NCBI GenBank assembly: GCA_031316235.1
Contig: JALDRA010000001.1
Span: forward strand, 1,980,001-2,012,000
Source: Candidatus Scalindua sp.
GTDB lineage: Bacteria; Planctomycetota; Brocadiia; Brocadiales; Scalinduaceae
DNA: 32,000 nucleotides
Direction: 5' to 3'
The notes under the pieces were generated by a model. It searched no databases. It had not been told where the DNA came from and saw nothing but the letters and a program-made list of their open reading frames with translations. Both the position numbers and the translations under genes were made by a program. Positions 1,767 through 31,213 of the stretch are shown here, in pieces. Numbering within the stretch: position 1 is the stretch's first letter; every line of letters begins with the position of its first letter.

Positions 1767-3176
1767 CTATACATTTTTCAGATTACCAATCCGTTTGAAC
1801 CAGGTGAACACACCTGATATCGTGTTCCATGCCAGTGTGATCACGTCCTTCGGAACTGTCTTTGATAACAGCCGGGGATTTAATGCCTTATAAAATATTT
1901 CTTTATAGGGGATGTTTCCCGTTAACATGTTCCAGAGTATATCGTTCATTTGATCTGCAGTCCGCTTATCTTTGTCAGATTTTAAAAATTTAATGTGGCT
2001 GTTTGCTACCTGTCTTTGAGATGACAGATAATCGTTTATTTTTAACATAATGAGACCATACCGATTGTCACGGGCAAGGATACGTTTGGCAGGTTTAAAA
2101 TATCCATTCATGAATGCCGTTTCAGATATTCCCTGCTTAAAAGCGGTATAAGCCGAAAGCTTTGCCATATTAAAGGCGGATTCAATACCGCTTTTGTACG
2201 ACCGAGAGATGCTCGCATCCCCTAAAATAACAATCCTGTCTGTAAAAGGGTGCTTTGCATAATTTACCGGAATCCTGGAAATACACATGCAGAAACTCTT
2301 CGGTATTTCCCACTCCTGTGGCATCAGCCTCCTTACCGCAGGCTGATCCAGGAAGTCTATGAGATGATTTCTCGTCAGGTCCTCTCTTCCCACCAGGTTT
2401 ACCGTGACATAGTCTGCCTTTGGTGTAATGGACGCAAACTTGAGTTCTTTCTTGCCGAGTGCGAAAACAAAGATACTATTGCCGAAAACCCTTTCAATAT
2501 GCTCAGTACCCAGCATTATCTCACACTGACACGTTCGAACGGTTTTCGGTGGTTTATAACCGAAACCCATCTGGGCAACCTTTTCCATCATCCCGGTATT
2601 TACACCAAAGGCACCAGCTACCAGATCAGCTTCAGTTTCCTTTCTTGATGCTCCGTCTCCGGTTATTAACCTGACAGGACCGATGTGTCCGGGGGACACT
2701 TTTATTTCCTTTACAACATCAGGGATTATCTCTACCCCCTTTTTTTTAACATGGTGCAAGAGTAAATCATCGAAGCTGATATTGCCTTCATGTGGGGACA
2801 AGAGCGGCCCATTTCCGCGAAATACCGTGACAATATCTGGTATGTGTCCTGGTACAGGATGATGGAGCAGCACACTGTCGTCCGGTGTTTGGAAACAATA
2901 GGCTTCTATTTTTCTCTGAATACAGGATTGCCCGATACCTATTCCCTCTTTTTGCAGATTAGTAAATAAATTTTCTGATATGACACCGGCGCACATGTTG
3001 CAACCCTGCGGGCCCTTGTGGCAGAAGCTCTTCTTGTCATATATTTTTATGGAGACATCAATGCCCTTCTCTTCGGCGTAGCGCGATGCAAAATGGGCAA
3101 AAAAACTACCCGCAGGCCCCCCGCCAATTATGGCGATCCTGGAACCATCTTTCAGAAAAAGTGTGCTATCGTGCAT
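1767..3176 (-). CDS. FAD-dependent oxidoreductase (geranylgeranyl-reductase-like flavoprotein fold), paralog 1
   Basis: 469-aa ORF. It has an N-terminal dinucleotide-binding motif IAIIGGGPAGSFFAH, a conserved KGPQGCNMCAGVIS motif and a late GDA motif (ILGDASISRSYKSGIESA). By eye, roughly half of the first ~160 residues are identical to the downstream paralog. Confidence 0.7.
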   Translation of the reverse strand: MHDSTLFLKDGSRIAIIGGGPAGSFFAHFASRYAEEKGIDVSIKIYDKKSFCHKGPQGCNMCAGVISENLFTNLQKEGIGIGQSCIQRKIEAYCFQTPDDSVLLHHPVPGHIPDIVTVFRGNGPLLSPHEGNISFDDLLLHHVKKKGVEIIPDVVKEIKVSPGHIGPVRLITGDGASRKETEADLVAGAFGVNTGMMEKVAQMGFGYKPPKTVRTCQCEIMLGTEHIERVFGNSIFVFALGKKELKFASITPKADYVTVNLVGREDLTRNHLIDFLDQPAVRRLMPQEWEIPKSFCMCISRIPVNYAKHPFTDRIVILGDASISRSYKSGIESAFNMAKLSAYTAFKQGISETAFMNGYFKPAKRILARDNRYGLIMLKINDYLSSQRQVANSHIKFLKSDKDKRTADQMNDILWNMLTGNIPYKEIFYKALNPRLLSKTVPKDVITLAWNTISGVFTWFKRIGNLKNV

Positions 3177-3821
3177 AGTGTTTATGTGCCTCTCTCGTTA
3201 CACCTTGTTCATTTTAACGGCAAGTTCTTTTTTGTTCCGATCTTCTCATCACCCGATTACCGGATATCAGGGTAAACAGTACTTGCGGTCTAACACAAGC
3301 TGATAATAGTGGTCATGCTCAATGCGTCATGTGGTAAAGCACTATCAGGGATTTCAAAAAAACAGGAGATTTTATAATCTGCATGGCTTATCAGCTTCAT
3401 CGGGCAGTCTCTTCTTCTTACTATTCCCAATAAAAAAGCCTTGCCACCGAGAGATACAGAGATCACGACTTCGGTAGCAAGGCTATATTTTCTAAGTACA
3501 CACAGAGTAACGCAGCGGGTTAAAAAACCGTCTGCTTTGCGTTCCCGATTGCTCAGGGTATGCCTTTGTCGTGAGACTTAAATATTTTTATCAGATAGGA
3601 TACACTTAAGGTATTACGTTTCATCTATCGAAAAAAACAGGCCACACGGCCCGCATAATCGTCCCGGGATCGTAACAGCCTTTCCTGATCATCGATAGTG
3701 TAGAGTTCAATATACTCCCTCTCTTTTGGATTGTAAACAGAATTTTTGTTTTCACTCAATGGCGGGAAGTAAAAGAGAGGTCTTTAAATGTCACTCTTTT
3801 CTGAATGATTTCCCTGAAAAA

Positions 3822-20621: not shown

Positions 20622-20657
20622 TATACTAAAACCGAAAACCAAATCGGTTTTAGTATA
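20622..20657 (+). repeat. Solo terminal hairpin of the dispersed repeat family (copy F); likely also acts as a terminator
   Basis: Perfect 14-bp stem: TATACTAAAACCGA at 20622-20635 pairs with TCGGTTTTAGTATA at 20644-20657, with loop AAACCAAA. The 29-nt string AAAACCGAAAACCAAATCGGTTTTAGTAT also ends copies A and B. It starts 11 nt after the DUF4149 stop. Confidence 0.8.
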
Positions 20658-20699
20658 TCTTTCCTGCAGATCTTTTTTCATACAATCAATAGGAGAATT

Positions 20700-21245
20700 A
20701 TGAATACCAAAAAAGAACCCTCCAAAAAATCACAAGCAGAGAAGGCGCCATGCCCTGATGGTACAGAGAAGACACTTTTGACTACCATTGAAACATCAAT
20801 GGCGGAAGAATTGAAGGCAAGCGCTTTTTATAAGGAGGTATCGAAGCAACTCAAAGATAAGGCGGCAAGATTTAAGTTTGAAGTGATGTCTGATGCTGAA
20901 CAGAACCATTATGAGCTCTTGAAAGAGTGGTGTGAGGAAAAATATGGGCTGATACCAAAAACAAAAAAGATCAAAGAAGCAAAGATAGTTATCATAGAGA
21001 AACCAAAAAAAAAAGCCACGTATGAGGATATCATCAAGATAATAATCGCATCCGAGGAAAGGGCATGCAGATTTTATGAAAATGCTGCAAAGAAAACAGA
21101 AAATAGTGAAGCAAAAAAGCTGTTTGAAAAGCTGGCAGAAATAGAGGGTAAGCACGTTGATCAATTTAAAGATGAATTTCGGGTAATAACTGAACCTTCC
21201 CTCTGGTGTGGAGAAGAAGAGATACCATGGATGCTTGAAGTTTAG
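20700..21245 (+). CDS. Ferritin-like diiron protein (rubrerythrin family), second copy
   Basis: Ligand-type motifs EELKASAFY / DAEQNH and EERACRFY / EIEGKH. It has a Lys-rich central linker. AGGAG SD 5 nt upstream. Confidence 0.7.
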   Translation: MNTKKEPSKKSQAEKAPCPDGTEKTLLTTIETSMAEELKASAFYKEVSKQLKDKAARFKFEVMSDAEQNHYELLKEWCEEKYGLIPKTKKIKEAKIVIIEKPKKKATYEDIIKIIIASEERACRFYENAAKKTENSEAKKLFEKLAEIEGKHVDQFKDEFRVITEPSLWCGEEEIPWMLEV

Positions 21246-21247
21246 GA

Positions 21248-21745
21248 TTACAGATATTTTTCAGATGCGGCAATTACAATTCTGGCACATGCCACCGCGT
21301 CTGACAAGGCTTCATGATGGTTTAAGGGAATGCGTAGATAGCGGCAAACATCCGGCAATTTTGTTGGATATATCCCCCATTTTTTCCGTGCCAGTTTAAC
21401 GGTACATTGAAACGGAATTGATGGTGGTGTGATATCCGATTTTTCGCAACAGGCATGTAAAACGGAACGGTCAAAAGAAGAATTGTGCGCAGCAAGAAAA
21501 TCTATTCCGGTTAAAATATCTTTTAATGATGGCCACAAATCCTGAAAATCCGGTTTGGATACTACCATGTCCCAGGTGATACCATGTATGGGAGTAAATT
21601 CGAAATATTGTCTTGGAGGTTTGATAAGCCGATGCTCTTTATGAACAATCTTCCCTGATTCAACCCGAACCATGGCAACAGCGCAGGCGCTGTCTCTAAG
21701 GCGATCGGCGGTTTCAAAGTCTATGGCAACAAAAATACCACTCAT
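21248..21745 (-). CDS. DEDDh 3'-5' exonuclease (DnaQ / Pol III epsilon-like)
   Basis: Exo I VAIDFETAD, Exo II LAAHNSSFDRSVL, Exo III HHEALSDAVACARI. 165 aa, single domain. Confidence 0.85.
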   Translation of the reverse strand: MSGIFVAIDFETADRLRDSACAVAMVRVESGKIVHKEHRLIKPPRQYFEFTPIHGITWDMVVSKPDFQDLWPSLKDILTGIDFLAAHNSSFDRSVLHACCEKSDITPPSIPFQCTVKLARKKWGIYPTKLPDVCRYLRIPLNHHEALSDAVACARIVIAASEKYL

Positions 21746-22332
21746 ATCTTTTTTATGCCAGCCTCAAAAAAAGGGTTTGTATATTTCTCCACACCCACTG
21801 TGGTAAAGGGACCGTGTGCAGGAAAGACCAGGGTCTCATCCGGCAGGGTAAAGAGCTGCTTACGGATATGTTCAACCTGTCTCTTTGCCTCTTTTTGTGT
21901 GCTTGTTCCTCCAACCGAACCGCAAAAGAGGGCATCACCCGTGAAGAGGTAACCGTGTCCAAAATAGGTGATTCCGTGGGGTGTATGGCCCGGCATAGAC
22001 AGGGCCTGAAATCTTAAATGCCCGACCTCAATTACCTCGCCGCCCCGTAAAAGGTGATTTGCGTCACGGATTTCCCCCTCGCCGGCATAGCACTCTACGT
22101 GGTAATGCAGATCGAATTCTGGCACCCCCTCCGTATGGTCCCAATGGCCATGGGTAAAAAAGAGATATTTCAGCTGGATCTCTCTTTCCTGAACAAAGTC
22201 CTCTATCTCTCTGCTAAAACCTCCCGGGTCAATAAAGCCCCCAATCCTGGTTTCGGGGTCTGCCACCAGATAACCGTTTATGGGATACCTCCCCACAGTA
22301 AAACGCCTGAATATCAGATCAGGTATCATCAT
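21742..22332 (-). CDS. Metallo-beta-lactamase-fold hydrolase (glyoxalase II-like)
   Basis: HxHxDH motif in FFTHGHWDHTEG, with later His/Asp ligands (MPGHTPHG, FTGDALF, PAHGP). Its stop overlaps the exonuclease start by 4 nt (ATGA). Confidence 0.85.
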   Translation of the reverse strand: MMIPDLIFRRFTVGRYPINGYLVADPETRIGGFIDPGGFSREIEDFVQEREIQLKYLFFTHGHWDHTEGVPEFDLHYHVECYAGEGEIRDANHLLRGGEVIEVGHLRFQALSMPGHTPHGITYFGHGYLFTGDALFCGSVGGTSTQKEAKRQVEHIRKQLFTLPDETLVFPAHGPFTTVGVEKYTNPFFEAGIKKI

Positions 22333-22476
22333 ATAATGGTTCAGAAAGAAAAAAACTCAGCGGTCCCTGCCCGTACTGAATGGTATGTTCGTGATGGCAG
22401 GTAAACAGACAAAAAATTCCAAACGGGTTTGATAATTCGAACATTGCAAATTCAAATATGCAATTTAGTAACTTCT

Positions 22477-22569
22477 CCTGATTAATGGTATCCCCGGACA
22501 AAAGCCGAGGACTTTACTCGCTCAATTTTATCTCGAATTTTATCCGAAATCCAGTGTGAGCTGAATATA
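22477..22569 (-). repeat. Dispersed MITE-like repeat, copy D (truncated, lacks the terminal hairpin end)
   Basis: The reverse complement aligns with copy A from TATATTCAG…GGATTTCGGATAAAATTCGAGATAAAATTGAGCGAGTAAAGTCCTCGG…TCCGGGGATACC. There is a 3-nt indel relative to A. Confidence 0.75.
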
Positions 22570-22632
22570 GAGTAAATATATTTTACATAATTTAAGTATT
22601 GATAGGAAGCTAATAAAGTATAGAATAAGATA

Positions 22633-22745
22633 TATACTGGAATCGATCTGGTTTTAGATTTTTCTAAAAACCAAAGACTGGTTGCTGGAAGACCCGCTCC
22701 GTTTTTTCTCGGATTTTGTCCGAAAACCAGTATAAGATGAGTATA
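22633..22745 (-). repeat. Dispersed MITE-like repeat, copy E (short form)
   Basis: The reverse complement reads TATACTCATCTTATACTGGTTTTCGGACAAAATCCGAGAAAAAACGGAGCGGG…CCAGTATA. It is colinear with copy B and lacks the same 27-nt internal segment. Confidence 0.75.
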
Positions 22746-22749
22746 AAGA

Positions 22750-23255
22750 TACGGGAGATACCTCGGTAGAAGATCCGGACACCATGTTTATAATCTGCCA
22801 GCTGAAGAGGAGAAAAGCTGGGCCAGGGTAAATGAGTGTCTTGAGAGTACACACTTCAAAAATGTTTTTGTAGTCGGGGATGCGGCACTCCTCCCTGAAC
22901 CTGCTGACAAACAGGCGTATCATGCCCTGGATATGGGGAAGCTGGCTGCTGAAAACATTGTACGACAGACCAGCGACCTGCACAGCGGGCCTTTAAACCT
23001 ACAGTAAAGCCTTTTCTGCTTACTTTTGGTGACATAGGCACCTTTATGATCTTTGGTGAAAAGGTGGTCAGTGGCCCTTCAATGAGTATTGCTAAAGAAC
23101 TGGTATATCAAATGATAATGAGCCAGCTTGAAGGAACAGGAAGTTTACATTCAGTAGAAAATGCACTCAAAAGAGTGCCTTCTTTCTCAAGAGTTCTTAT
23201 CAGAAACCACCTTATACGAAGAATGATGTCCTCACTGTCTAACAGTACACGTTAG
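22750..23255 (+). pseudogene. Type II NADH dehydrogenase (NDH-2) C-terminal fragment, 5'-truncated and frameshifted
   Basis: Three frames must be spliced to read it: GDTSVEDPDTMFII…, then …ARVNECLESTHFKNVFVVGDAALLPEPADKQAYHALDMGKLAAENIV… (second FAD/NAD GD motif region), then …FKPTVKPFLLTFGDIGTFMIFGEKVVSGPSMSIAKELVY…. There is no N-terminal Rossmann half, and the fragment starts directly after repeat E. Confidence 0.6.
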
Positions 23256-23460
23256 CCATAGTGTAAGCAGGATAAAACGACAGGGTGCAGAAGATCTACA
23301 TATCAGATTTTTTCCTTCGAACAGTTGAGGATAGAGATGAATGTCTAAATGGTTGTGACATAGCGAGCATGTCTGTTGTAATTCTCTTACGTGAAATTGC
23401 GCATCTTCAACAGCCCCGGGTGTCTGATTATTTTTTGCTATCTTGATACAGACTTTTGCG

Positions 23461-24408
23461 TCATTTCTTTGCTTCAGAAACTGCAATCTTAACTGCTTCC
23501 CTGAACGGTGTTCTTTTTATGGGAATATATCTTACAATACTGTCATCCAGGCACACAACCTCATTTTTCAATCCCTCTATCAGGGGGTGTGCTATTCCTG
23601 ATGGGATTGGGGTAACCAGGTCTACCCAGTAGGCTGCAAGGCGTGGTGATAAAACCGGTGCACGGAAAATAATCCTTCTGCGGATTCCTACAGCCTCTGT
23701 ATACTGCTGCATCATATCCCGGTACGTCAGAACCTCTGGTCCGCCAATATCGAATTTTTTCCCCGCTGTGTCCGGATTCAGCAGGCATCCTGTAAGGTAT
23801 GACAGGACATCATTTACCGCAATCGGTTGTATCCTTGTATCTATCCACTTCGGGCAAATCATGACTGGCAGCCGCTCCACAAGATATTTCAGCATTATGA
23901 AAGAGGCACCTCCTGCCCCTATGATTACCGCTGCTCGGAGTACTGTTGCAAGGGGTGCTCCAGACGAGAGTATTTCGGCAACCTCCTCTCTGCTTTTCAG
24001 ATGTTCTGAAAGGTCTTTTCCGGTTTCTCCCAGCCCGCCCAGGTAAATCACCCGCTTGATGCCGGCTTCATCTGCCGATGTGATAAAGTTTTTTGCGGCG
24101 TCTTTATCCATCCTGGCGAACTCATTATTTTTGAACATGCTCTTTCCGCCCATTGAATGAACGAGGTAATAGGCCGAATGGATCTCACGGGTCGCCTCTT
24201 TCAGGCCCTCTCCCTTGACAAGGTCGCCCTTGACAATCTCAATATCTTTATTTTCCAGAATGGAAGCCGCTACCTTTGAAGGATTTCTCACCAGCAGCCG
24301 GAGCCTGATGTTTTTCGCTGAAAGAGCAGATATAAGCCTGCTTCCGATAAATCCGGTGCCTCCAAGGATCAATACTCTGTCGCTGGGTTTAAGTGCTAAA
24401 TTGTCCAT
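23461..24408 (-). CDS. NAD(P)H-binding atypical SDR (NmrA / NDUFA9-like)
   Basis: N-terminal VLILGGTGFIGSRLISAL Rossmann motif. 315 aa with no classical YxxxK seen by eye. Confidence 0.7.
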   Translation of the reverse strand: MDNLALKPSDRVLILGGTGFIGSRLISALSAKNIRLRLLVRNPSKVAASILENKDIEIVKGDLVKGEGLKEATREIHSAYYLVHSMGGKSMFKNNEFARMDKDAAKNFITSADEAGIKRVIYLGGLGETGKDLSEHLKSREEVAEILSSGAPLATVLRAAVIIGAGGASFIMLKYLVERLPVMICPKWIDTRIQPIAVNDVLSYLTGCLLNPDTAGKKFDIGGPEVLTYRDMMQQYTEAVGIRRRIIFRAPVLSPRLAAYWVDLVTPIPSGIAHPLIEGLKNEVVCLDDSIVRYIPIKRTPFREAVKIAVSEAKK

Positions 24409-24608
24409 CGTTTCATTATATCAAAGAAATAAGCATTAAACATTTAATATTTTTTAAATCAGGTTTCACCATCTGAAATACGCGGTGCCCCTGATCGTTA
24501 ATGTTTATAAAAAGTATACAGGAAAAACTCTTCCTTAATTATCTTTCTTTGTGTAAACCCATACATGTTGATTTCATTGACATTTCTCACGGGAACTGTT
24601 AAGTTGCA

Positions 24609-24747
24609 TATACTCATTTCATACTTGATTTCGGATAAAATCCGAGAAAAAATTGAGCGAGTAAAGTCCTCGGTGCCTTTTATCCGGGGATACCTTTACC
24701 AGGATTTTGTTTCCGGTAAAACCGAAAACCAAATCGGTTTTAGTATA
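24609..24747 (+). repeat. Dispersed MITE-like repeat, copy A (full length, reference orientation)
   Basis: TATACTCATTTCATACTTGATTTCGGATAAAATCCGAGAAAAAATTGAGCGAGTAAAGTCCTCGGTGCCTTTTATCCGGGGATACCTTTACCAGGATTTTGTTTCCGGTAAAACCGAAAACCAAATCGGTTTTAGTATA. Two internal hairpins, and ends TATACT…AGTATA. Confidence 0.8.
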
Positions 24748-24760
24748 TAAGGAGGTACTA

Positions 24761-26377
24761 GTGAAAAGGATATCTGGCTTCGTAATAACTCCGGTATTAA
24801 TCCTTGTCTTAACTGCTCAGATAACCTTTGCTGCCAGTATTGCAGAGCTTGAAATCAGGGCCAACCAGGGAGATGGTGAGGCAATGTATGAACTGGCAGA
24901 GATGTATCAGAATGGTGTGGGAGCATTACAGAATTACGTGGAAGCACACAAATGGTACAATATAGCTTCATCCCGTGGATATGTAAAAGCCCGCAATGCC
25001 CGTGACATTATTGCTGAAAAAATGATAGACGAACAGCTGGCTGAAGCGCAGAAACTTGCTGCACAATGGGAACCGTCTGAGAGTAAAGTGTCTGAAACTG
25101 AAACCAAAAACAAAAAACAATTACTGCTTGAGGAACTATTCAAGGCAATCCACGATAGTGATGGAGATAAATTACAGGCGTTATTGGATTCCGGAGCTGA
25201 TCCAGACACTGAAATATTTACAGGAGTTCCCCTCCTGATGGTTGCTGTGGGTGAAAACAAGAAGCCGATCGTTGAGGCTCTTGTTAATGGCGGAGCTGAC
25301 GTAAATGTAATGATCAAGAAGGGTTTGACGCTTTTAATGATCGCGATCAAAGACGGTCATAGTGATATTGCAAAGTATTTAATAGAGCAGGGAGCGAATC
25401 TGGACGTGATAAGTGATAACGGTTCCACTGCTTTATCACTGGCAAAGTCCAAAGGATTTGATGATGTCGTAAAGCGTATCAAAAAGGCAGGGGGAAAGGA
25501 TGAACAGGGAGGAAAAGGGCAGATTCCCGGAGATATTATTGCGGTGGTTAAGAAGGGTGATGTTGAAAGAGTAAAAGAATTATTAGCCTGGGGAGCAGAC
25601 CGGAATAAGACCGATAGGAAAGGATGGTTTCCTCTCATGTTTGCCGCCTTTGCCGGGCATGAAGAAATCGTTGCAGTACTCATAAACTCCGGAGTTCAAA
25701 TAAACACAAAGGCGACTGACGGCTCAACAGCACTAATGGCCGCCACGCTGCAAGGACACTATTCAATAGTAAAACTCCTGCTGGAAAAAGGTGCAGATAA
25801 AACAGTCGAAAATAATAGTGGCGCAACAGCTCTCGATATAGCCAGGCAGAAAGGGTATGATGAGATTGCGGGGCTTTTAACCATTAAATTACGCTCAACG
25901 TATAGTAATCTCTCATATGATCAGGTAAAGGCAGCACTGAAAAAATACAATTTCTTTGATCAAAACAGGAATCAAACCGGAGAATTTATCAATGATTATG
26001 AGCTGAAGATGATTAACGGTGATGATGTTGTTCTCGATCATATCACGAACCTGATGTGGCATCAGTCAGGTTCTGAAAAAAATATGAAGTGGAAAGATGC
26101 CAAGGAATGGATTGATAATCTGAACAGACGGGTATACGCAGGCTATAATGACTGGCGATTGCCTACTGTGGAGGAAGCAGCATCGTTGCTTGAATCAACG
26201 GAAAACGATGATTTCTTATATATAGACCCTGTTTTCAATATAACACAACGTTTAATATGGACAGGTGACAGCTTTGGTACTCGTGGTGCATGGGATGCAA
26301 ACTTCGTCACCGGCGGCGTTATCTGGCGCTTCACAGACTCAGATCTCCATGCACGTCCGGTCCGCTCCGTCAAATGA
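24761..26377 (+). CDS. Secreted Sel1-repeat / ankyrin-repeat / DUF1566 (Lcl C-terminal-like) protein
   Basis: GTG 24761 lies 5 nt after AAGGAGG and gives the signal peptide MKRISGFVITPVLILVLTAQITFAAS. Sel1-like repeat GDGEAMYELAEMYQNGVGALQNYVEAHKWYNIASSRG. About 6-7 ankyrin repeats (e.g. GWFPLMFAAFAGHEEIVAVLINSGVQIN). C-terminal DUF1566-type segment (NLMWHQ…W.DAKEWIDNLN…GYNDWRLPTVEEAASL…ARPVRSV). Confidence 0.8.
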   Translation: MKRISGFVITPVLILVLTAQITFAASIAELEIRANQGDGEAMYELAEMYQNGVGALQNYVEAHKWYNIASSRGYVKARNARDIIAEKMIDEQLAEAQKLAAQWEPSESKVSETETKNKKQLLLEELFKAIHDSDGDKLQALLDSGADPDTEIFTGVPLLMVAVGENKKPIVEALVNGGADVNVMIKKGLTLLMIAIKDGHSDIAKYLIEQGANLDVISDNGSTALSLAKSKGFDDVVKRIKKAGGKDEQGGKGQIPGDIIAVVKKGDVERVKELLAWGADRNKTDRKGWFPLMFAAFAGHEEIVAVLINSGVQINTKATDGSTALMAATLQGHYSIVKLLLEKGADKTVENNSGATALDIARQKGYDEIAGLLTIKLRSTYSNLSYDQVKAALKKYNFFDQNRNQTGEFINDYELKMINGDDVVLDHITNLMWHQSGSEKNMKWKDAKEWIDNLNRRVYAGYNDWRLPTVEEAASLLESTENDDFLYIDPVFNITQRLIWTGDSFGTRGAWDANFVTGGVIWRFTDSDLHARPVRSVK

Positions 26378-26455
26378 AACCATGTTCGCATGAAGGCTGA
26401 CTGTATGGTGATCGGTATTTATTCTCACCTTATTCTTTTTGCTGGTGGAGGTTGT

Positions 26456-27310
26456 ATGGCTAAAGTTTTAATTGCCGGTTGTGGAGATATTGGTATGGGT
26501 CTGGGTAAAGCGCTCATTGAAAAAGGGAACTCTGTAGTCGGGCTGAGACGCCATCCGCCTGTCGAGAAAATGGGTATTTCCTTTCTTGCAGCAGATGTAA
26601 CAAACCCGGCGACTCTGGAAGGTATGGATACTGATTTTGATCAGGTGTTTTTCGTTGCAGCACCCAGACAGCATGATTTGAATGCTTACAGGGGAATTTA
26701 TGAAGCTGGAGTAGAAAATTTATTTGATACCTTTTCAAAAAATCAACATACTCCGCACTGGATATCAGTATCTTCTACCAGCGTCTATAACCAGGTGCAT
26801 GGAGAGTGGGTTGATGAGGACTCGTTAACTGAAGCGGGAAGGTTTAATGGGCAGTTGCAATTGTTATCGGAAGAGAGAGTTCTGGCTGAGAACAAAAGTA
26901 ATCTGATAGTGCGTTTTTCCGGGATATATGGCCCGGGACGCAGCCGTATGTTAAGGAAGGCCAGTGAAGGCGGCCCGATACAGTTCAGGCCACCTTATTA
27001 TACAAACCGGATTCATAAAGAAGACTGCATCGGTGTATTGATGTTTTTATTCGAAAAAAGAGTCAACGGCGAAAAATTACATTCACACTATTTAGCGAGT
27101 GATGATGAACCGGCCCCGCTGTGGGAGGTGGTTTCATGGCTCGCAAAGCAGCTTAAGCGCAGACAACCTGAAATCAAAGAGGCAGAGCAGGATGCTTCAC
27201 AAAACAAAAGATGCCGAAATAAGCGATTAAAAGAGCTTGGATACCGTTTTCAATATCCAACATACAGAGAAGGGTACCGGTTGCTGGTAAAAGAATTTAA
27301 CCGTTGTTGA
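26456..27310 (+). CDS. NAD-dependent epimerase/dehydratase-family (extended SDR) protein
   Basis: ATG 26456 follows GGAGG and gives MAKVLIAGCGDIGMGLGKAL, a Rossmann motif. The track start at 26390 adds an unlikely hydrophobic leader. Confidence 0.65.
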   Translation: MAKVLIAGCGDIGMGLGKALIEKGNSVVGLRRHPPVEKMGISFLAADVTNPATLEGMDTDFDQVFFVAAPRQHDLNAYRGIYEAGVENLFDTFSKNQHTPHWISVSSTSVYNQVHGEWVDEDSLTEAGRFNGQLQLLSEERVLAENKSNLIVRFSGIYGPGRSRMLRKASEGGPIQFRPPYYTNRIHKEDCIGVLMFLFEKRVNGEKLHSHYLASDDEPAPLWEVVSWLAKQLKRRQPEIKEAEQDASQNKRCRNKRLKELGYRFQYPTYREGYRLLVKEFNRC

Positions 27311-27381
27311 ATGTGTAATTGAAAAAATCAACTATGGCCTCATATTGTGTTTTTTTACCAGACACTCTCTGTACGTTCTCT

Positions 27382-28332
27382 TTACACATGGTTTCTCAGC
27401 ATCAGTTCCACTGGATGAGGCTCGAGGTAGTGCTGTCTTTCCAAGTAAGATACGTTTAATTTTCTCACATAATGGTTAAGCAGGGTAATGGGTACAACAA
27501 GGGGTATCAATTCTTTCCGGTAACTTTCGATGATTCCGAGCAGCTCTTGTTTTTCATCCGTCGTCAAATTCTTTTTAAAATATCCCTGGATATGTTGTAA
27601 GACATTGGTATTCTTCTTAACCGTTGCAATCAGTGTGATGCCCTCCATGAGAATCCTGATATATTCAGGGAGCAGATTTTCAGCCTTCTCTTTTGTTGCA
27701 TTTGCCAGTAAATGTCCGAGGATTGAATAATGTCTTGGACTGTGCCCCATAATAAGAAGCTTATGAGCGGTATGGAAATCTATCAAGTCTTTCATGGAGA
27801 CATCTTTCTTCCGAAATTCCTGCCACCGCTTTAATACGAATATTCTCTCAACAAAGTTTTCTCTGAAACGGGGATTGTGGAGCCGGCCGTCATCCTCTAC
27901 AGGAATGAGAGGAAAATGCTTCATAAAGGCACCTCCGAATATGCCTTTACCCGTTTTCGTTACCGCCCCTGATGGCAAATACACTTTTACACCTCTTATG
28001 CCGGAGCTTGGCGAACCGCACTTGAAGATAAAACCGCAGAGGTTTTCTTTTTCCAGTTTTTTTATCATTTTTTCTGCCCACTGTAACATTCTTTCAGTGT
28101 GATCTATCCCGGTTTTTATCGTTACAAGGCGGGGAGATTCGGGGTTTCCGAACAGATGCATGGGTTCCCTGGGTACAGAAAGACCACATTCCGTTTCAGG
28201 ACAAACAGGGATCCACTCAAAGTACTGCCCGAGGGTATCGGTTATAAACCTGTCAAGCCTGTGATTCCCATCATACCGCACTTTATCTCCCAGCAGACAG
28301 GAGCTTATTCCTATCTTAATCATTTCGAACAT
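27382..28332 (-). CDS. YbgA-like protein (DUF523 + DUF1722)
   Basis: The N-terminal IGISSCLLGDKVRYDGNH is typical of DUF523. The C-terminal half (…DFHTAHKLLIMGHSPRHYSILGHLLAN…) is typical of DUF1722. Confidence 0.7.
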   Translation of the reverse strand: MFEMIKIGISSCLLGDKVRYDGNHRLDRFITDTLGQYFEWIPVCPETECGLSVPREPMHLFGNPESPRLVTIKTGIDHTERMLQWAEKMIKKLEKENLCGFIFKCGSPSSGIRGVKVYLPSGAVTKTGKGIFGGAFMKHFPLIPVEDDGRLHNPRFRENFVERIFVLKRWQEFRKKDVSMKDLIDFHTAHKLLIMGHSPRHYSILGHLLANATKEKAENLLPEYIRILMEGITLIATVKKNTNVLQHIQGYFKKNLTTDEKQELLGIIESYRKELIPLVVPITLLNHYVRKLNVSYLERQHYLEPHPVELMLRNHV

Positions 28333-28435
28333 ACTGTTCAGCCCTTCCTGACTTACAACCTATTCCCATTGGAAGAATATATTTCTGCAATACTAAGGGT
28401 GCAGGATAAAACAACAAGTTATTCTTTCCTGGGCC

Positions 28436-29317
28436 CTAAGAGACGCAATCGCTGACAGCCGTTTCGATTTCCGGAAATAAAAAGGTGAAACCGCTGTCCA
28501 TAAGTTTTTTCGGGATTACGTTCTGACCCTTTGTGAGTATCTGAGAGCCCTCACCCAATTTTAACCGGAGTGCAAACTTTGGTACCCGGAAAAAGGTGGG
28601 TCTGCGGAGTGCTTTTCCCAGTGCATCGGTCAAACCTTTATTTGTCGTGGGTTTGGGTGCAGTAAGATTATATATGCCTTCATACGCAGTATTTTCTATT
28701 ACGGCCTGGTAAGCGCGTATCAGGTCCTTGATATGTACCCATGAGAATGGCTGCATACCATCTCCAATGGTGCCTCCCATACCCAACTTAAAGGGAAAGA
28801 GCATCTTCTTGAGCGCTCCGCCGTCCTTACCCAGGACTACTCCAAAGCGGAAAATAACCGTTCGAATGCCAAGTTTTCCGGCCTTGAGGGCCTCCTGTTC
28901 CCAATCTTCTGCAAGATTACCGAGGAAATCATCGGCTTTCACATAGTGCTCCTCTGTATGCGTTCCCTCTGTGGCATAGTAGCCTATGGCAGAGGTGGAA
29001 ACAAGCAGTTTCGGTTTCTGGCTTGCAAGTGAGCATGCCTGTACAAGCTTTCGGGTAACATCAATCCTGCTCTCATGCAGGGTCTTCTTATACGTTTCTG
29101 TCCATTTTTCTATGATCGGTGCGCCAGCCAGATTAATAAGTATGTCTGCTCCATCCATCCGCTCCGCTATCACCTCGGGGGAAAGCGTAAAATCCTTTCT
29201 CCCGAGAGGCAGAACCTCGTAATTCTCTGCATGAAAGGCACGGGTCAAATTGGATCCAACAAACCCACTTGCACCGCTCATGGCAATTTTATGGTTGATT
29301 TTATCCTCCATGTTCAT
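28436..29317 (-). CDS. TIGR01777/YfcH-like epimerase-family protein (SDR39U1-like)
   Basis: Rossmann motif AMSGASGFVGSNL and a C-terminal DUF1731-like end (…QNVIPKKLMDSGFTFLFPEIETAVSD). It is on the same strand as, and 103 nt upstream of, the YbgA-like gene. Confidence 0.7.
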   Translation of the reverse strand: MNMEDKINHKIAMSGASGFVGSNLTRAFHAENYEVLPLGRKDFTLSPEVIAERMDGADILINLAGAPIIEKWTETYKKTLHESRIDVTRKLVQACSLASQKPKLLVSTSAIGYYATEGTHTEEHYVKADDFLGNLAEDWEQEALKAGKLGIRTVIFRFGVVLGKDGGALKKMLFPFKLGMGGTIGDGMQPFSWVHIKDLIRAYQAVIENTAYEGIYNLTAPKPTTNKGLTDALGKALRRPTFFRVPKFALRLKLGEGSQILTKGQNVIPKKLMDSGFTFLFPEIETAVSDCVS

Positions 29318-29407
29318 ACTCCTTTCGTAAAAATTTGAAAAAATCTTTCGGGTTTAGATTAGATTATATCGGGGTCTCCCTGAATTAATTGCTGATTTCA
29401 ATTACAT

Positions 29408-29446
29408 CTTCACCACTCTCTCTTTCATAAAGAGAGAGTGGTGAAG
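29408..29446. other. Orphan perfect 18-bp hairpin
   Basis: CTTCACCACTCTCTCTTT at 29408-29425 pairs with AAAGAGAGAGTGGTGAAG at 29429-29446, with loop CAT. A T-rich tract follows on the plus strand only. Confidence 0.6.
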
Positions 29447-29486
29447 ATTGCTTGTTTTTAAGGGTACTTTTTCGATTTTGTGGAAA

Positions 29487-29625
29487 CTAACTGATTTTTT
29501 TGAACAATAAACCTGATGCACTGCAGACAGGACATTTGTCAGGAGCACTGTTTTTTTACCGTATTTCCACAAACCTGGCAGACATAGTAATCCACGTACC
29601 CATTGTTTCCTGATACTTCATTATA
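29487..29625 (-). pseudogene. Relic of a rubredoxin-type zinc ribbon (rubrerythrin C-terminus-like), no start codon, frameshifted in an A7 tract
   Basis: The minus strand reads …GYVDYYVCQVCGNTVK, then after skipping one base of the A7 run (plus-strand T run 29551-29557) KNSAPDKCPVCSASGLLFKKIS*. The pattern [YW]xCxxCG…APxxCPxC…F matches rubrerythrin C-terminal domains. No diiron domain lies upstream. Confidence 0.5.
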
Positions 29626-29978
29626 TCATATTTAACTCTATTTTTCTCTATAAAGAAAGAACTGGTGGTGTTAGGAGTTCCCTGCAATCAGTTTGGCAGG
29701 CAGGAGAGCCGGGGACAGAAGCTGAGATAAAAAAGTTTTGTGAGCTTCGCTATGGGGTAATCTTCCCGATGCTGAAGAAAGCTGACGTGAAAAATCCGAA
29801 ACAACACCCACTTTACCACTATCTTTTGGAGCAAAGCAGCTCTTCCAAAGAGATTGTCTGGAACTTTGAAAAGTTTCTGGTAGGGCGCGACGGTCAGATA
29901 AAAAGACGTTTTTCGTCGGGGATAAAACCTCTGAGCAAGGTAATGGTATCTGCCGTAAAGAAGGAACTTGAGAATTGA
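29614..29978 (+). pseudogene. Glutathione peroxidase fragment lacking the catalytic N-terminus, with an internal frameshift
   Basis: One frame reads …KKELVVLGVPCNQFGRQE. After a 2-nt offset at 29707-29708 the next frame reads PGTEAEIKKFCELRYGVIFPMLKKADV…IVWNFEKFLVGRDGQIKRRF…. The GPx motifs FPCNQFGxQEPG and WNFxKFL are present, but the N-terminal NVAS-C/U-G region is absent because an in-frame stop lies at 29611. Confidence 0.7.
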
Positions 29979-30058
29979 AGCTGGCTCATTAAATCCGGGA
30001 TAGAGAGCCAGGCAGATTACGGAAACAAAAATAATCATGAAATAAATAAATGCTGAAT

Positions 30059-30859
30059 TTATTTTTGATAGTATCTCATGGCTTCCGGTATTTCAGCTTT
30101 TATATTTTTGATACGATTTTGATCTGAGGGGTGAGAACTTAATAACTCTGGAATGTTGGCCGAACCCTTCATGGCAGCCATCCTTTCCCAGAATCCGACA
30201 GCGGTGTTGGGATCGTATCCAGCCATGGCCATAAAGATTAATCCTAAATGGTCAGCCTCACTTTCGTGCACTCTGCTGTAAGGCAGCAGGATGCCGTATT
30301 GAGTCCCGACACCAAAAGCGTTCATCCACAATTTCTGTGTTACTTCAGGTCTGCTTTGAAGAGTCATGGATATTGCTGCTGTACCAAATTCAGCGATTAA
30401 ACCATGGCTCATCCGTTCATCGCCGTGTTTTGCAACAGCATGAGCAATTTCATGTCCCATAACGACAGCTAACCCGCTTTCATCTTTTGTAATTGGTAAT
30501 ATACCGGTATAAACGACGACTTTTCCACCCGGCATACACCAGGCGTTTGCCTCGGGATTCTCGATTAAGTTAAATTCCCAGTTGTAATTTTTCAATCTTG
30601 ATGACATCTGGTTGTCAGCCATGTACTTCTCGACAGCTTTCTGTATTCTCCCCCCGACAGACTTTACCATATTTATCTGCGCCTGGTTTGTGCTGATCTT
30701 ATTTGTTTTCAGGAATTCTTCGTATTGCTGAAAACTTGTTGAAAGCATGGTATCTGAAGGAATAATATCCAGCTGCCTCCGTCCGGTCAACGGCACCGAC
30801 GTACAAGATAAAATAAAAAAACACAGTACGATAAAACCAATAAGATTTTTTTTGCTCAC
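30059..30859 (-). CDS. M48-family zinc metallopeptidase lipoprotein (YcaL/LoiP-like)
   Basis: GTG start 9 nt after AAGGAG. Lipobox in FFILSC. HExxH in MGHEIAHAVAKH. A downstream glutamate and SHP motif (ESEADHLG…LLSSHPSDQNR). Confidence 0.85.
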   Translation of the reverse strand: MSKKNLIGFIVLCFFILSCTSVPLTGRRQLDIIPSDTMLSTSFQQYEEFLKTNKISTNQAQINMVKSVGGRIQKAVEKYMADNQMSSRLKNYNWEFNLIENPEANAWCMPGGKVVVYTGILPITKDESGLAVVMGHEIAHAVAKHGDERMSHGLIAEFGTAAISMTLQSRPEVTQKLWMNAFGVGTQYGILLPYSRVHESEADHLGLIFMAMAGYDPNTAVGFWERMAAMKGSANIPELLSSHPSDQNRIKNIKAEIPEAMRYYQK

Positions 30860-30885
30860 GGTTACATTCTCCTTGTCTCTGAATC

Positions 30886-31027
30886 TATACTAAAACCGAT
30901 CAGGTTTCAGGGTTTTCTGGAAACCGGAGCCTGGTTGATGGTATACCCGGACAAAAAGCACCGAGGACCTTACCCGCTCCGGGTTTTTCGGATTTTATCC
31001 GAAAACCATTATAATAAGATGGGTATC
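30886..31027 (-). repeat. Dispersed MITE-like repeat, copy C (full length, inverted orientation)
   Basis: The reverse complement is colinear with copy A along its whole length (…ATGGTTTTCGGATAAAATCCGAAAAACCCGGAGCGGGTAAGGTCCTCGGTGCTTTTTGTCCGGGTATACC…GATCGGTTTTAGTATA). Confidence 0.8.
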
Positions 31028-31101
31028 ATATTCATTAATCTTCTAACAACTTATAATTACTTTCTTCTGAATCACCTCAGCAGTCTCGGTTAAAGCGGGA
31101 T

Positions 31102-31213
31102 TATACTCATCTCATAATGGTTTTCGGATAAAATCCGAGAAAAATTTGAGCGAGTATACCTTCACCAAGATTTGGTTTCCGGTAAAACCGAAAACCAAAT
31201 CGGTTTTAGTATA
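31102..31213 (+). repeat. Dispersed MITE-like repeat, copy B (short form)
   Basis: TATACTCATCTCATAATGGTTTTCGGATAAAATCCGAGAAAAATTTGAGCGAGTATACCTTCACCAAGATTTGGTTTCCGGTAAAACCGAAAACCAAATCGGTTTTAGTATA. Compared with A it lacks a 27-nt internal segment. Confidence 0.8.

Follow-up and report, generated by a model that had tools for sequence, protein, structure and literature searches.

The stretch considered here, called the window, is 32,000 nucleotides of the genome of Candidatus Scalindua sp. (assembly GCA_031316235.1, contig JALDRA010000001.1, positions 1,980,001 to 2,012,000 of the forward strand). Between its positions 20,622 and 31,213 lie six copies of a short repeat. The repeat is very probably a non-autonomous MITE (a miniature transposable element with inverted repeats), derived from and moved in trans by a resident DDE transposase of the IS630 family (Tc1/mariner superfamily) of Candidatus Scalindua.

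The six copies had been listed in an original prediction, and they are confirmed, at most 1 nt off the earlier coordinates, by a repeat finder, a multiple alignment and a search with a profile built from four of the six copies. The profile recovers 6/6 copies, with E-values ranging from that of copy A down to that of copy F. The copies and their parts are given below in window coordinates; TIR stands for terminal inverted repeat.

20622..20657 (+): copy F, 36 nt, internally deleted, both termini kept, profile E-value 1.6e-4
22477..22569 (-): copy D, truncated long form, profile E-value 1e-19, profile positions 2-97
22633..22745 (-): copy E, 113 nt, short form, profile E-value 8e-31
24609..24747 (+): copy A, 139 nt, long form, profile E-value 7e-43
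24609-24610 and 24746-24747: TA duplications of copy A
24609-24634: left TIR of copy A
24722-24747: right TIR of copy A
24664..24690 (+): middle hairpin module of copy A, AAGTCCTCGGTGCCTTTTATCCGGGGA, 27 nt, present in A and C and not in B and E
30886..31027 (-): copy C, 142 nt, long form, profile E-value 6e-42
31102..31213 (+): copy B, 112 nt, short form, profile E-value 2e-31

The shared ends are as first described, and so is the 27-nt block that separates the long copies A and C from the short copies B and E. All six copies are intergenic, as had been claimed, and none of them contains a transposase open reading frame (ORF). Copy F had been taken for a solo end, which is wrong: it is an internally deleted copy that retains both termini. 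Its sequence, with the termini TATAC...GTATA, is a perfect palindrome of 14 bp around an 8-nt loop, and it has an exact 30-nt stretch in common with A and B. It lies 11 nt past the stop codon of a DUF4149 gene and has a terminator-like score.

Copy A ends 3 nt upstream of the AGGAGG ribosome-binding site (RBS) of an Ank/Sel1 gene with a GTG start at 24761. The right end of copy C, whose left terminus is degenerate (GATACCCATC), lies 16 nt upstream of the RBS of an M48 peptidase gene (30059-30859, minus strand). Copy D keeps the left TIR, the left hairpin and the middle module, is without the right hairpin and the right TIR, and lies upstream of an MBL-fold gene (21742-22332, minus strand). Copy B is flanked by two minus-strand genes and is antisense relative to both. 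Overall, 5/6 window copies are sense and directly upstream of a gene. The neighbouring genes are functionally unrelated, coding for DUF4149, rubrerythrin, an RNase T-like exonuclease, an MBL hydrolase, an NmrA-like protein, the Ank/Sel1 protein, the M48 peptidase and a pentapeptide-repeat protein.

Copy E represents a sub-family with a re-registered right inner stem (TTTTTAGAAAAATCTAAAA). Directly adjoining it is a gene-like fragment with a frameshift (22746-23260, plus strand; …NVFVVGDAALLPEPADKQAYHALDMGKLAAENI… then …FLLTFGDIGTFMIFGEKVVSG…), for which a Pfam scan gave no match. This fragment may be a gene truncated at a MITE-associated breakpoint.

Ends, target site and the IS630-family relative

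A scan of a genome collection with a degenerate left-hairpin pattern returned at least 119 stretches (8-kb blocks). These stretches (917 kb) and the window are the basis of all family-wide counts, sizes and context tests reported here. The profile search found at least 188 matches in them, 118 of which are unique full-length copies, and the family is clearly not confined to the window.

Across the 118 copies the boundaries are sharp (TATACTCAT…TTTTAGTATA), the flanks are unrelated and no duplication is seen beyond the sharp ends. The left end shares with the right end, read as its reverse complement, an imperfect 26-bp TIR, TATACT-N10-TGGTTTTCGG, in which TATACT is perfect at both ends. Two copies (L006 7587-7698 and L012 6937-7049) sit inside another repeat family of ~160 nt, and they reveal the target site. 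The 12 uninterrupted ~160-nt paralogues read …cgccttg TA cctgggc…, whereas the filled L006 and L012 sites read …ccttg TA-TACT…GTG-TA cctggg…. Insertion thus takes place at a TA, which becomes duplicated, and TACT…AGTA is the element proper. Before insertion, this TA lies at the centre of a weakly palindromic, AT-rich target whose flanking positions are symmetric, with A at -1 and T at +1, G or T (K) at -2 and C or A (M) at +2, and A or T (W) at -3 and +3, where C or G is depleted. Such symmetry would be expected if a DDE transposase acts at palindromic AT-rich sites.

The ~160-nt repeats that host this diagnostic insertion constitute a third repeat family (…gagtacgctccggttacgtaattatttcgcgccttgTAcctgggcagttttggttcaaacactggg…) with many copies in the Scalindua genome SCAELEC01. 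Examples are found at L086 ~667-830, L071 1046-1204, L001 313-470 and many other SCAELEC01 loci.

A related insertion sequence (IS) of the IS630 family with closely similar termini occurs alongside the MITE in these genomes. The MITE left end matches the right TIR of this IS at 21/26 positions (22/26 for the variant of window copy A) and the MITE right end matches the same TIR at 19/26, so that both MITE ends derive from the right terminus of the IS. Four SCAELEC01 contigs start with an identical ~125-nt sequence that has the same terminus type and different flanks, and these contig ends bear TATACTCATTACGAAATGGTTTTAGG and the 3' end of the transposase gene. Breaks of this kind are the short-read signature of a long, recently active, multi-copy element. 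At the long-read locus L060 the ~125-nt sequence runs on into a DDE_3/HTH_33 remnant that abuts a TIR. The C-terminal half of the IS is found at L120 and the N-terminal half at L122, each with its terminus, and a SCAELEC01 contig end in L041 bears the left end. L136 has a complete IS of ~1.12 kb, which carries TA at either end and is frameshifted by one base. Joined from L122 and L120, the composite transposase has 343 aa, contains the Pfam domains HTH_23/29/33 and DDE_3, and scores 220 bits against the NCBIfam model transpos_IS630 (NF033545), for which the cut-off is 100. Homologues include proteins named IS630 family transposase in Ca. Brocadiaceae and a transposase of Ca. Scalindua japonica. 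IS630-family ISs are known to occur in anammox genomes (PMC7814187), and SCAELEC01 holds the IS ends and 85 MITE matches together.

An IS630/Tc1-mariner-type MITE is the best explanation because the TIRs match the right terminus of an IS whose transposase carries HTH and DDE_3 domains. The idea of a MITE-like, non-coding, TA-flanked family that spreads is thereby borne out by the copies outside the window, the TA target-site duplication (TSD), the 26-bp TIR and the IS630-family relative. Mechanistically, the HTH domains of the transposase would bind the MITE TIRs, and the DDE domain would cut the ends and join them to a staggered cut at TA, the repair of which would yield the TA duplication. 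Effects on neighbouring genes would be by-products of insertion and not the reason for the family's existence; on that basis, copies A and C would stand between any upstream promoter and the RBS of the downstream gene, and F would be terminator-like.

Several points weigh against this interpretation. The genome of the window itself yielded no intact transposase gene, the IS at L136 is frameshifted and the transposase of 343 aa was put together from two contigs. The TIR identity between MITE and IS is 73-81%, short of near-identity, and for this reason a closer IS630 relative may be the true driver. The base-level proof of the TSD comes from one insertion event in two loci, though 12 empty paralogues were compared, and mobilisation of the MITE in trans is putative. 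Furthermore, the identity of copies between genomes (0.84) equals that within genomes (0.84-0.85), which means that sub-families are common to several species and makes present activity in each lineage no more than a possibility.

ORFs of 150 aa or longer, drawn from 950 kb, were clustered; no multi-copy transposase emerged, Y1 transposases included, in genomes that are sampled in part and in which the IS is collapsed at short-read contig ends.

The same data bear on a REP/BIME-like or IS200/IS605-derived (PATE) element, which would be moved as single-stranded DNA by a Y1 enzyme (RAYT/TnpA). A mosaic of hairpin modules in variable number, with hairpins near both ends, would suit such an element. 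Elements mobilised by Y1 enzymes have neither TIRs nor TSD, and the presence of both excludes membership in the REP/RAYT and IS200/IS605-PATE groups. In addition, no conserved tetra- or pentanucleotide was found in the left flank of the 118 copies, the termini match a DDE element of the IS630 family, and no Y1 transposase is among the multi-copy ORFs of the partly sampled genomes. The probability of this origin is negligible.

Metagenomes were scanned with a 20-mer taken from the transposase gene's 3' end; the 11 matches are due to chance and have no similarity to the TIR or the transposase.

The same type of TIR occurs in a separate MITE family of ~182 nt, where it is better matched, with TATACYCATCRCRAAWTGGTTTTCGG at both ends. 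Examples are L010 3193-3373, L049 5114-5295, L115 5418-5599 and L060 1638-1819. This family is presumably moved by the same IS630-type transposase.

Modular architecture, coding capacity and RNA structure

Two length classes had been proposed, and they hold within the window; the family as a whole comprises at least eight. The size series is modular, with forms of 29, 36, 57, 92, 113, 140, 166 and 196 nt.

29 and 36 nt: derivatives shortened by deletion across short direct repeats; the 36-nt type includes window copy F
57 nt: minimal form, in which TAAAA joins the left and right TIRs
92 nt: minimal form carrying a GC-rich hairpin in its loop
113 nt: two hairpin units with a central TATA in common
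140 nt: the 113-nt form with the middle hairpin of 27 nt added
166-196 nt: one or two additional GC-rich hairpins, placed either between the middle and right units or, just 5' of TAAAA, in the apical loops

The two hairpins noted earlier are both present. For the right one, the stem first drawn (AAAACCGA/TCGGTTTT) proves to be only an alternative pairing, and the best fold of the right half is a longer hairpin, GATTTGGTTTCCGG-TAA-AACCGAAAACCAAATC. The internal hairpins would be inherent imperfect palindromes, each half resembling a TIR-loop-TIR' unit. The 29-196-nt series would have arisen by deletions between short repeats (TAAAA, TGGTTTT) and through GC-rich loop modules specific to sub-families.

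The GC-rich modules (CCYGCC…GACRGG) measure 26-35 nt and are of several sequence types. They always occupy an apical loop just 5' of TAAAA or the place between the middle and right units. All 42 of the 42 module matches lie inside MITE copies, and none was found outside them in the 917 kb searched. Examples are L035 300-471, L074 7658-7823, L087 1376-1571 and L013 415-594. That these modules reflect an undescribed process targeting hairpin loops, by insertion or templated expansion, or that the family has been co-opted genus-wide as an RNA-level regulator tuned by its modules, is a long shot. A model in which the length classes are tandem 27-mers was rejected as wrong in general, the modules being different hairpins; a genuine tandem duplication of the middle module is nonetheless present in the copy at L050.

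In the genome RBC_AMX3, two MITE copies are split by an insert (L062 4511-6204 and L101 3246-4936). These copies were considered as autonomous elements and rejected, as the insert is an unrelated IS of the IS110 family. The two ISs are 99.7% identical, carry the domains DEDD_Tnp_IS110 and Transposase_20, and are frameshifted. Both enter the 27-nt middle module at the identical point, …GTCCTCGGCGCC^TTTGTCC…, and the right halves of their host MITEs differ. IS110-family elements are known to insert specifically into REPs. By analogy, this looks like sequence-specific targeting of the MITE middle module by an IS110-family IS.

RBC_AMX3 also contains three solo left TIRs (L009 7665, L059 5274 and L061 6333) that all stop at one point of the left hairpin loop (…TTTTCGGATAT|), with unrelated sequence beyond it. 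They may mark a breakpoint that recurs, or else where a longer, so far unrecognised element ends.

A decayed small protein-coding sequence, or a mini-ORF module, had been considered as the source of the repeat. This descent was suggested by a plus-strand frame that is indeed uninterrupted over much of copies A, B, D and E, and by the length of the 27-nt indel, divisible by three. Across the family, the frame stays open in just 45/111 copies. Copy lengths are distributed over the three residues modulo 3 as 51/47/13, and the other internal modules measure 26-35 nt. Substitutions per codon position number 40/47/25, which makes the third position the least variable. No start codon or RBS is present, and copies are found in either orientation. 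A coding origin is thus contradicted and has next to no probability.

The element might instead be a functional structured RNA or a cis-regulatory module (a hairpin of the 5' untranslated region, a terminator or an RNA-stability element), with selected hairpins and with spreading as a secondary trait. The original prediction had raised such a role, which on the present evidence is quite improbable. Every copy folds better than shuffled sequence (z -3.2 to -7.7), but this is so on both strands, which fold about equally, and Alifold energies favour neither strand. One sub-family re-registers its right inner stem and still forms the hairpin; across the family, however, compensatory changes are almost absent, double-sided changes being confined to two pairs with 2 copies each. 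The wobble asymmetry is mixed as well, with the left and middle helices favouring the plus strand and the right inner helix the minus strand. No Rfam family is matched at its gathering score by any copy, and even at E<=1 the sole overlapping match, rli42, reaches 22.7 bits against a gathering score of 80.

Of the 97 copies with genes on both sides, 91 (~93%) are intergenic, and six share more than 60 nt with a predicted ORF, which is mostly a matter of start-codon ambiguity. The sense position of five window copies immediately upstream of a gene would suit a regulatory module, but it is not a rule of the family, because family-wide orientation and spacer types are unbiased: in tandem spacers 34 copies are sense and 20 antisense, a difference that is not significant, and tandem, divergent and convergent spacers number 54/24/13 for the MITE, matching the background of 336/107/88. 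The genes next to the copies have no function in common. The terminator-like copy F, just past a stop codon, would also suit the structured-RNA account; the promoter and terminator counts in the region are within shuffle expectation, and the only element-linked sites in that scan are inward-facing TATACT -10 boxes and the F hairpin. Finally, retention of one orthologous copy in two species (detailed below) could be read as selection on the element, but that copy sits in a conserved block extending beyond its ends. The preferred explanation thus remains a MITE of the IS630/Tc1-mariner type.

Distribution and evolution in Candidatus Scalindua

The MITE is abundant in marine anammox bacteria (Candidatus Scalindua). 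Among the scan matches listed, nearly all belong to metagenome-assembled genomes (MAGs) of Candidatus Scalindua or Scalinduaceae, namely SCAELEC01, RBC_AMX3, CBDCUS01, OFTM1 and an Anammoxibacter MAG. Matches in Sporosarcina and Mesorhizobium were discarded as chance, with no profile match in them. Profile matches number at least 85 in SCAELEC01, at least 82 in RBC_AMX3 and at least 12 in CBDCUS01. The genome of the window is that of a different Scalindua, its coding DNA being 77-84% identical to the syntenic RBC_AMX3 locus L050; single repeat copies match at 88-98%, which is above that range. In the literature searched, no paper links Scalindua with MITEs. The kind of element is ordinary, and it is apparently undescribed in the Scalindua group.

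The occupancy of insertion sites varies from species to species. Orthologous sites of RBC_AMX3 and SCAELEC01 have three outcomes, which are a retained copy, a 139-nt copy opposite a short F-like remnant, and presence versus absence. The retained copy (L023 4348-4759 and L107 6677-7089) is identical at 110/113 positions and lies in a near-identical block of ~250 nt that reaches past the MITE ends, the DNA further out being strongly diverged. The ORFs beside it resemble LexA, UmuD and a Y-family DNA polymerase, as judged by eye from their translations. At a place syntenic with the window, L050 has a copy and the window has none, the intergenic DNA being too diverged for a base-level empty site. 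Two Logan contigs, L123 (SRR28338162) and L124 (SRR28338161), bear the NmrA-like gene of the window and end inside copy A, and L123 ends in copy E on its other side. Short-read assemblies break at MITE sites because of the many near-identical copies.

The window has other features as well. At 3470-3574 (minus strand), a c-di-GMP-I riboswitch aptamer scores 37.1 bits against an Rfam gathering score of 35 and lies upstream of the minus-strand ORF 1767-3176. The strongest terminator-like hairpin of the region, at 29406-29448, has a perfect 20-bp stem, a 3-nt loop and a T-rich tail, and is unrelated to the MITE. Direct repeats at 257-303, 1670-1716 and 3109-3155, and at 733-819 and 2172-2258, recur with ~1.4-kb spacing and 68-74% identity. 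They lie inside adjacent minus-strand ORFs (1-1737, 1767-3176 and further ones), which suggests tandem paralogous genes.

Significance and relation to known systems

Scalindua, the principal genus of marine anammox bacteria, is known solely from enrichments and MAGs. The insertion polymorphism of the family supplies a ready typing marker for strains and species, and the copies flag genes with remodelled upstream regions, such as the Ank/Sel1 and M48 peptidase genes of the window. The family and its IS630-family relative form a pair of MITE and parent IS in Planctomycetota, in which the 57-nt form delimits what the transposase needs. The split copies offer a natural case of an IS110-family element using a MITE module as a specific target. 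A known class of element is extended to a new lineage, and current concepts are left unchanged.

RUP of Streptococcus pneumoniae is an IS630-family MITE linked to IS630-Spn1. Like RUP, the Scalindua MITE is ~100-140 nt long, non-coding, mostly intergenic and present in high copy number, and it inserts at TA with duplication of the TA. Its termini are likewise similar to the ends of an IS630-family IS in the same host, the transposase of which presumably acts in trans, and its copies cluster and nest with other small repeats. The two differ in that the Scalindua sequence is unrelated and the host belongs to an anammox lineage of the Planctomycetota. Unlike in RUP, both ends of the Scalindua MITE come from the right terminus of the IS, and each half has its own hairpin; the Scalindua family also has an unusually rich modular size series and GC-rich loop modules.

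TA duplication is also a property of the Correia elements (CREE) of Neisseria. These elements resemble the Scalindua MITE in architecture: they measure ~100-200 bp, with TIRs of ~26 bp and more than 100 copies, and they have length variants produced by internal deletion, with many copies immediately upstream of genes. In CREE, a TATA-like sequence at the terminus can serve as a -10 hexamer, as the TATACT termini of the Scalindua MITE score as inward-facing -10 boxes. Correia elements are without an identified transposase partner, whereas the Scalindua MITE has a candidate in the IS630 family. Promoters, integration host factor (IHF) sites and RNase III processing have been shown experimentally for Correia elements, whereas in Scalindua the promoter-like counts stay within shuffle expectation. 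RUP, which is named in the same review as Correia elements, and the Correia elements themselves are the closest architectural analogues (PMC10969869).

Eukaryotic Stowaway-like MITEs, derived from Tc1/mariner elements (PMC3814204), are similar in their TA duplication, their short TIRs and their origin by internal deletion from an autonomous element. The Scalindua MITE differs from them in belonging to the prokaryotic IS630 branch, in being much smaller and in having functional-looking minimal forms of 57 nt. IS110-family elements insert into the Scalindua MITE as they are known to do into REPs. REP/BIME sequences (PMC3733652) are likewise hairpin-forming, intergenic, mosaic and multi-copy. REPs are 20-40 nt long, have GTAG/CGTC heads, possess neither TIRs nor a TSD and are associated with RAYT Y1 enzymes, and none of these traits fits the Scalindua MITE.

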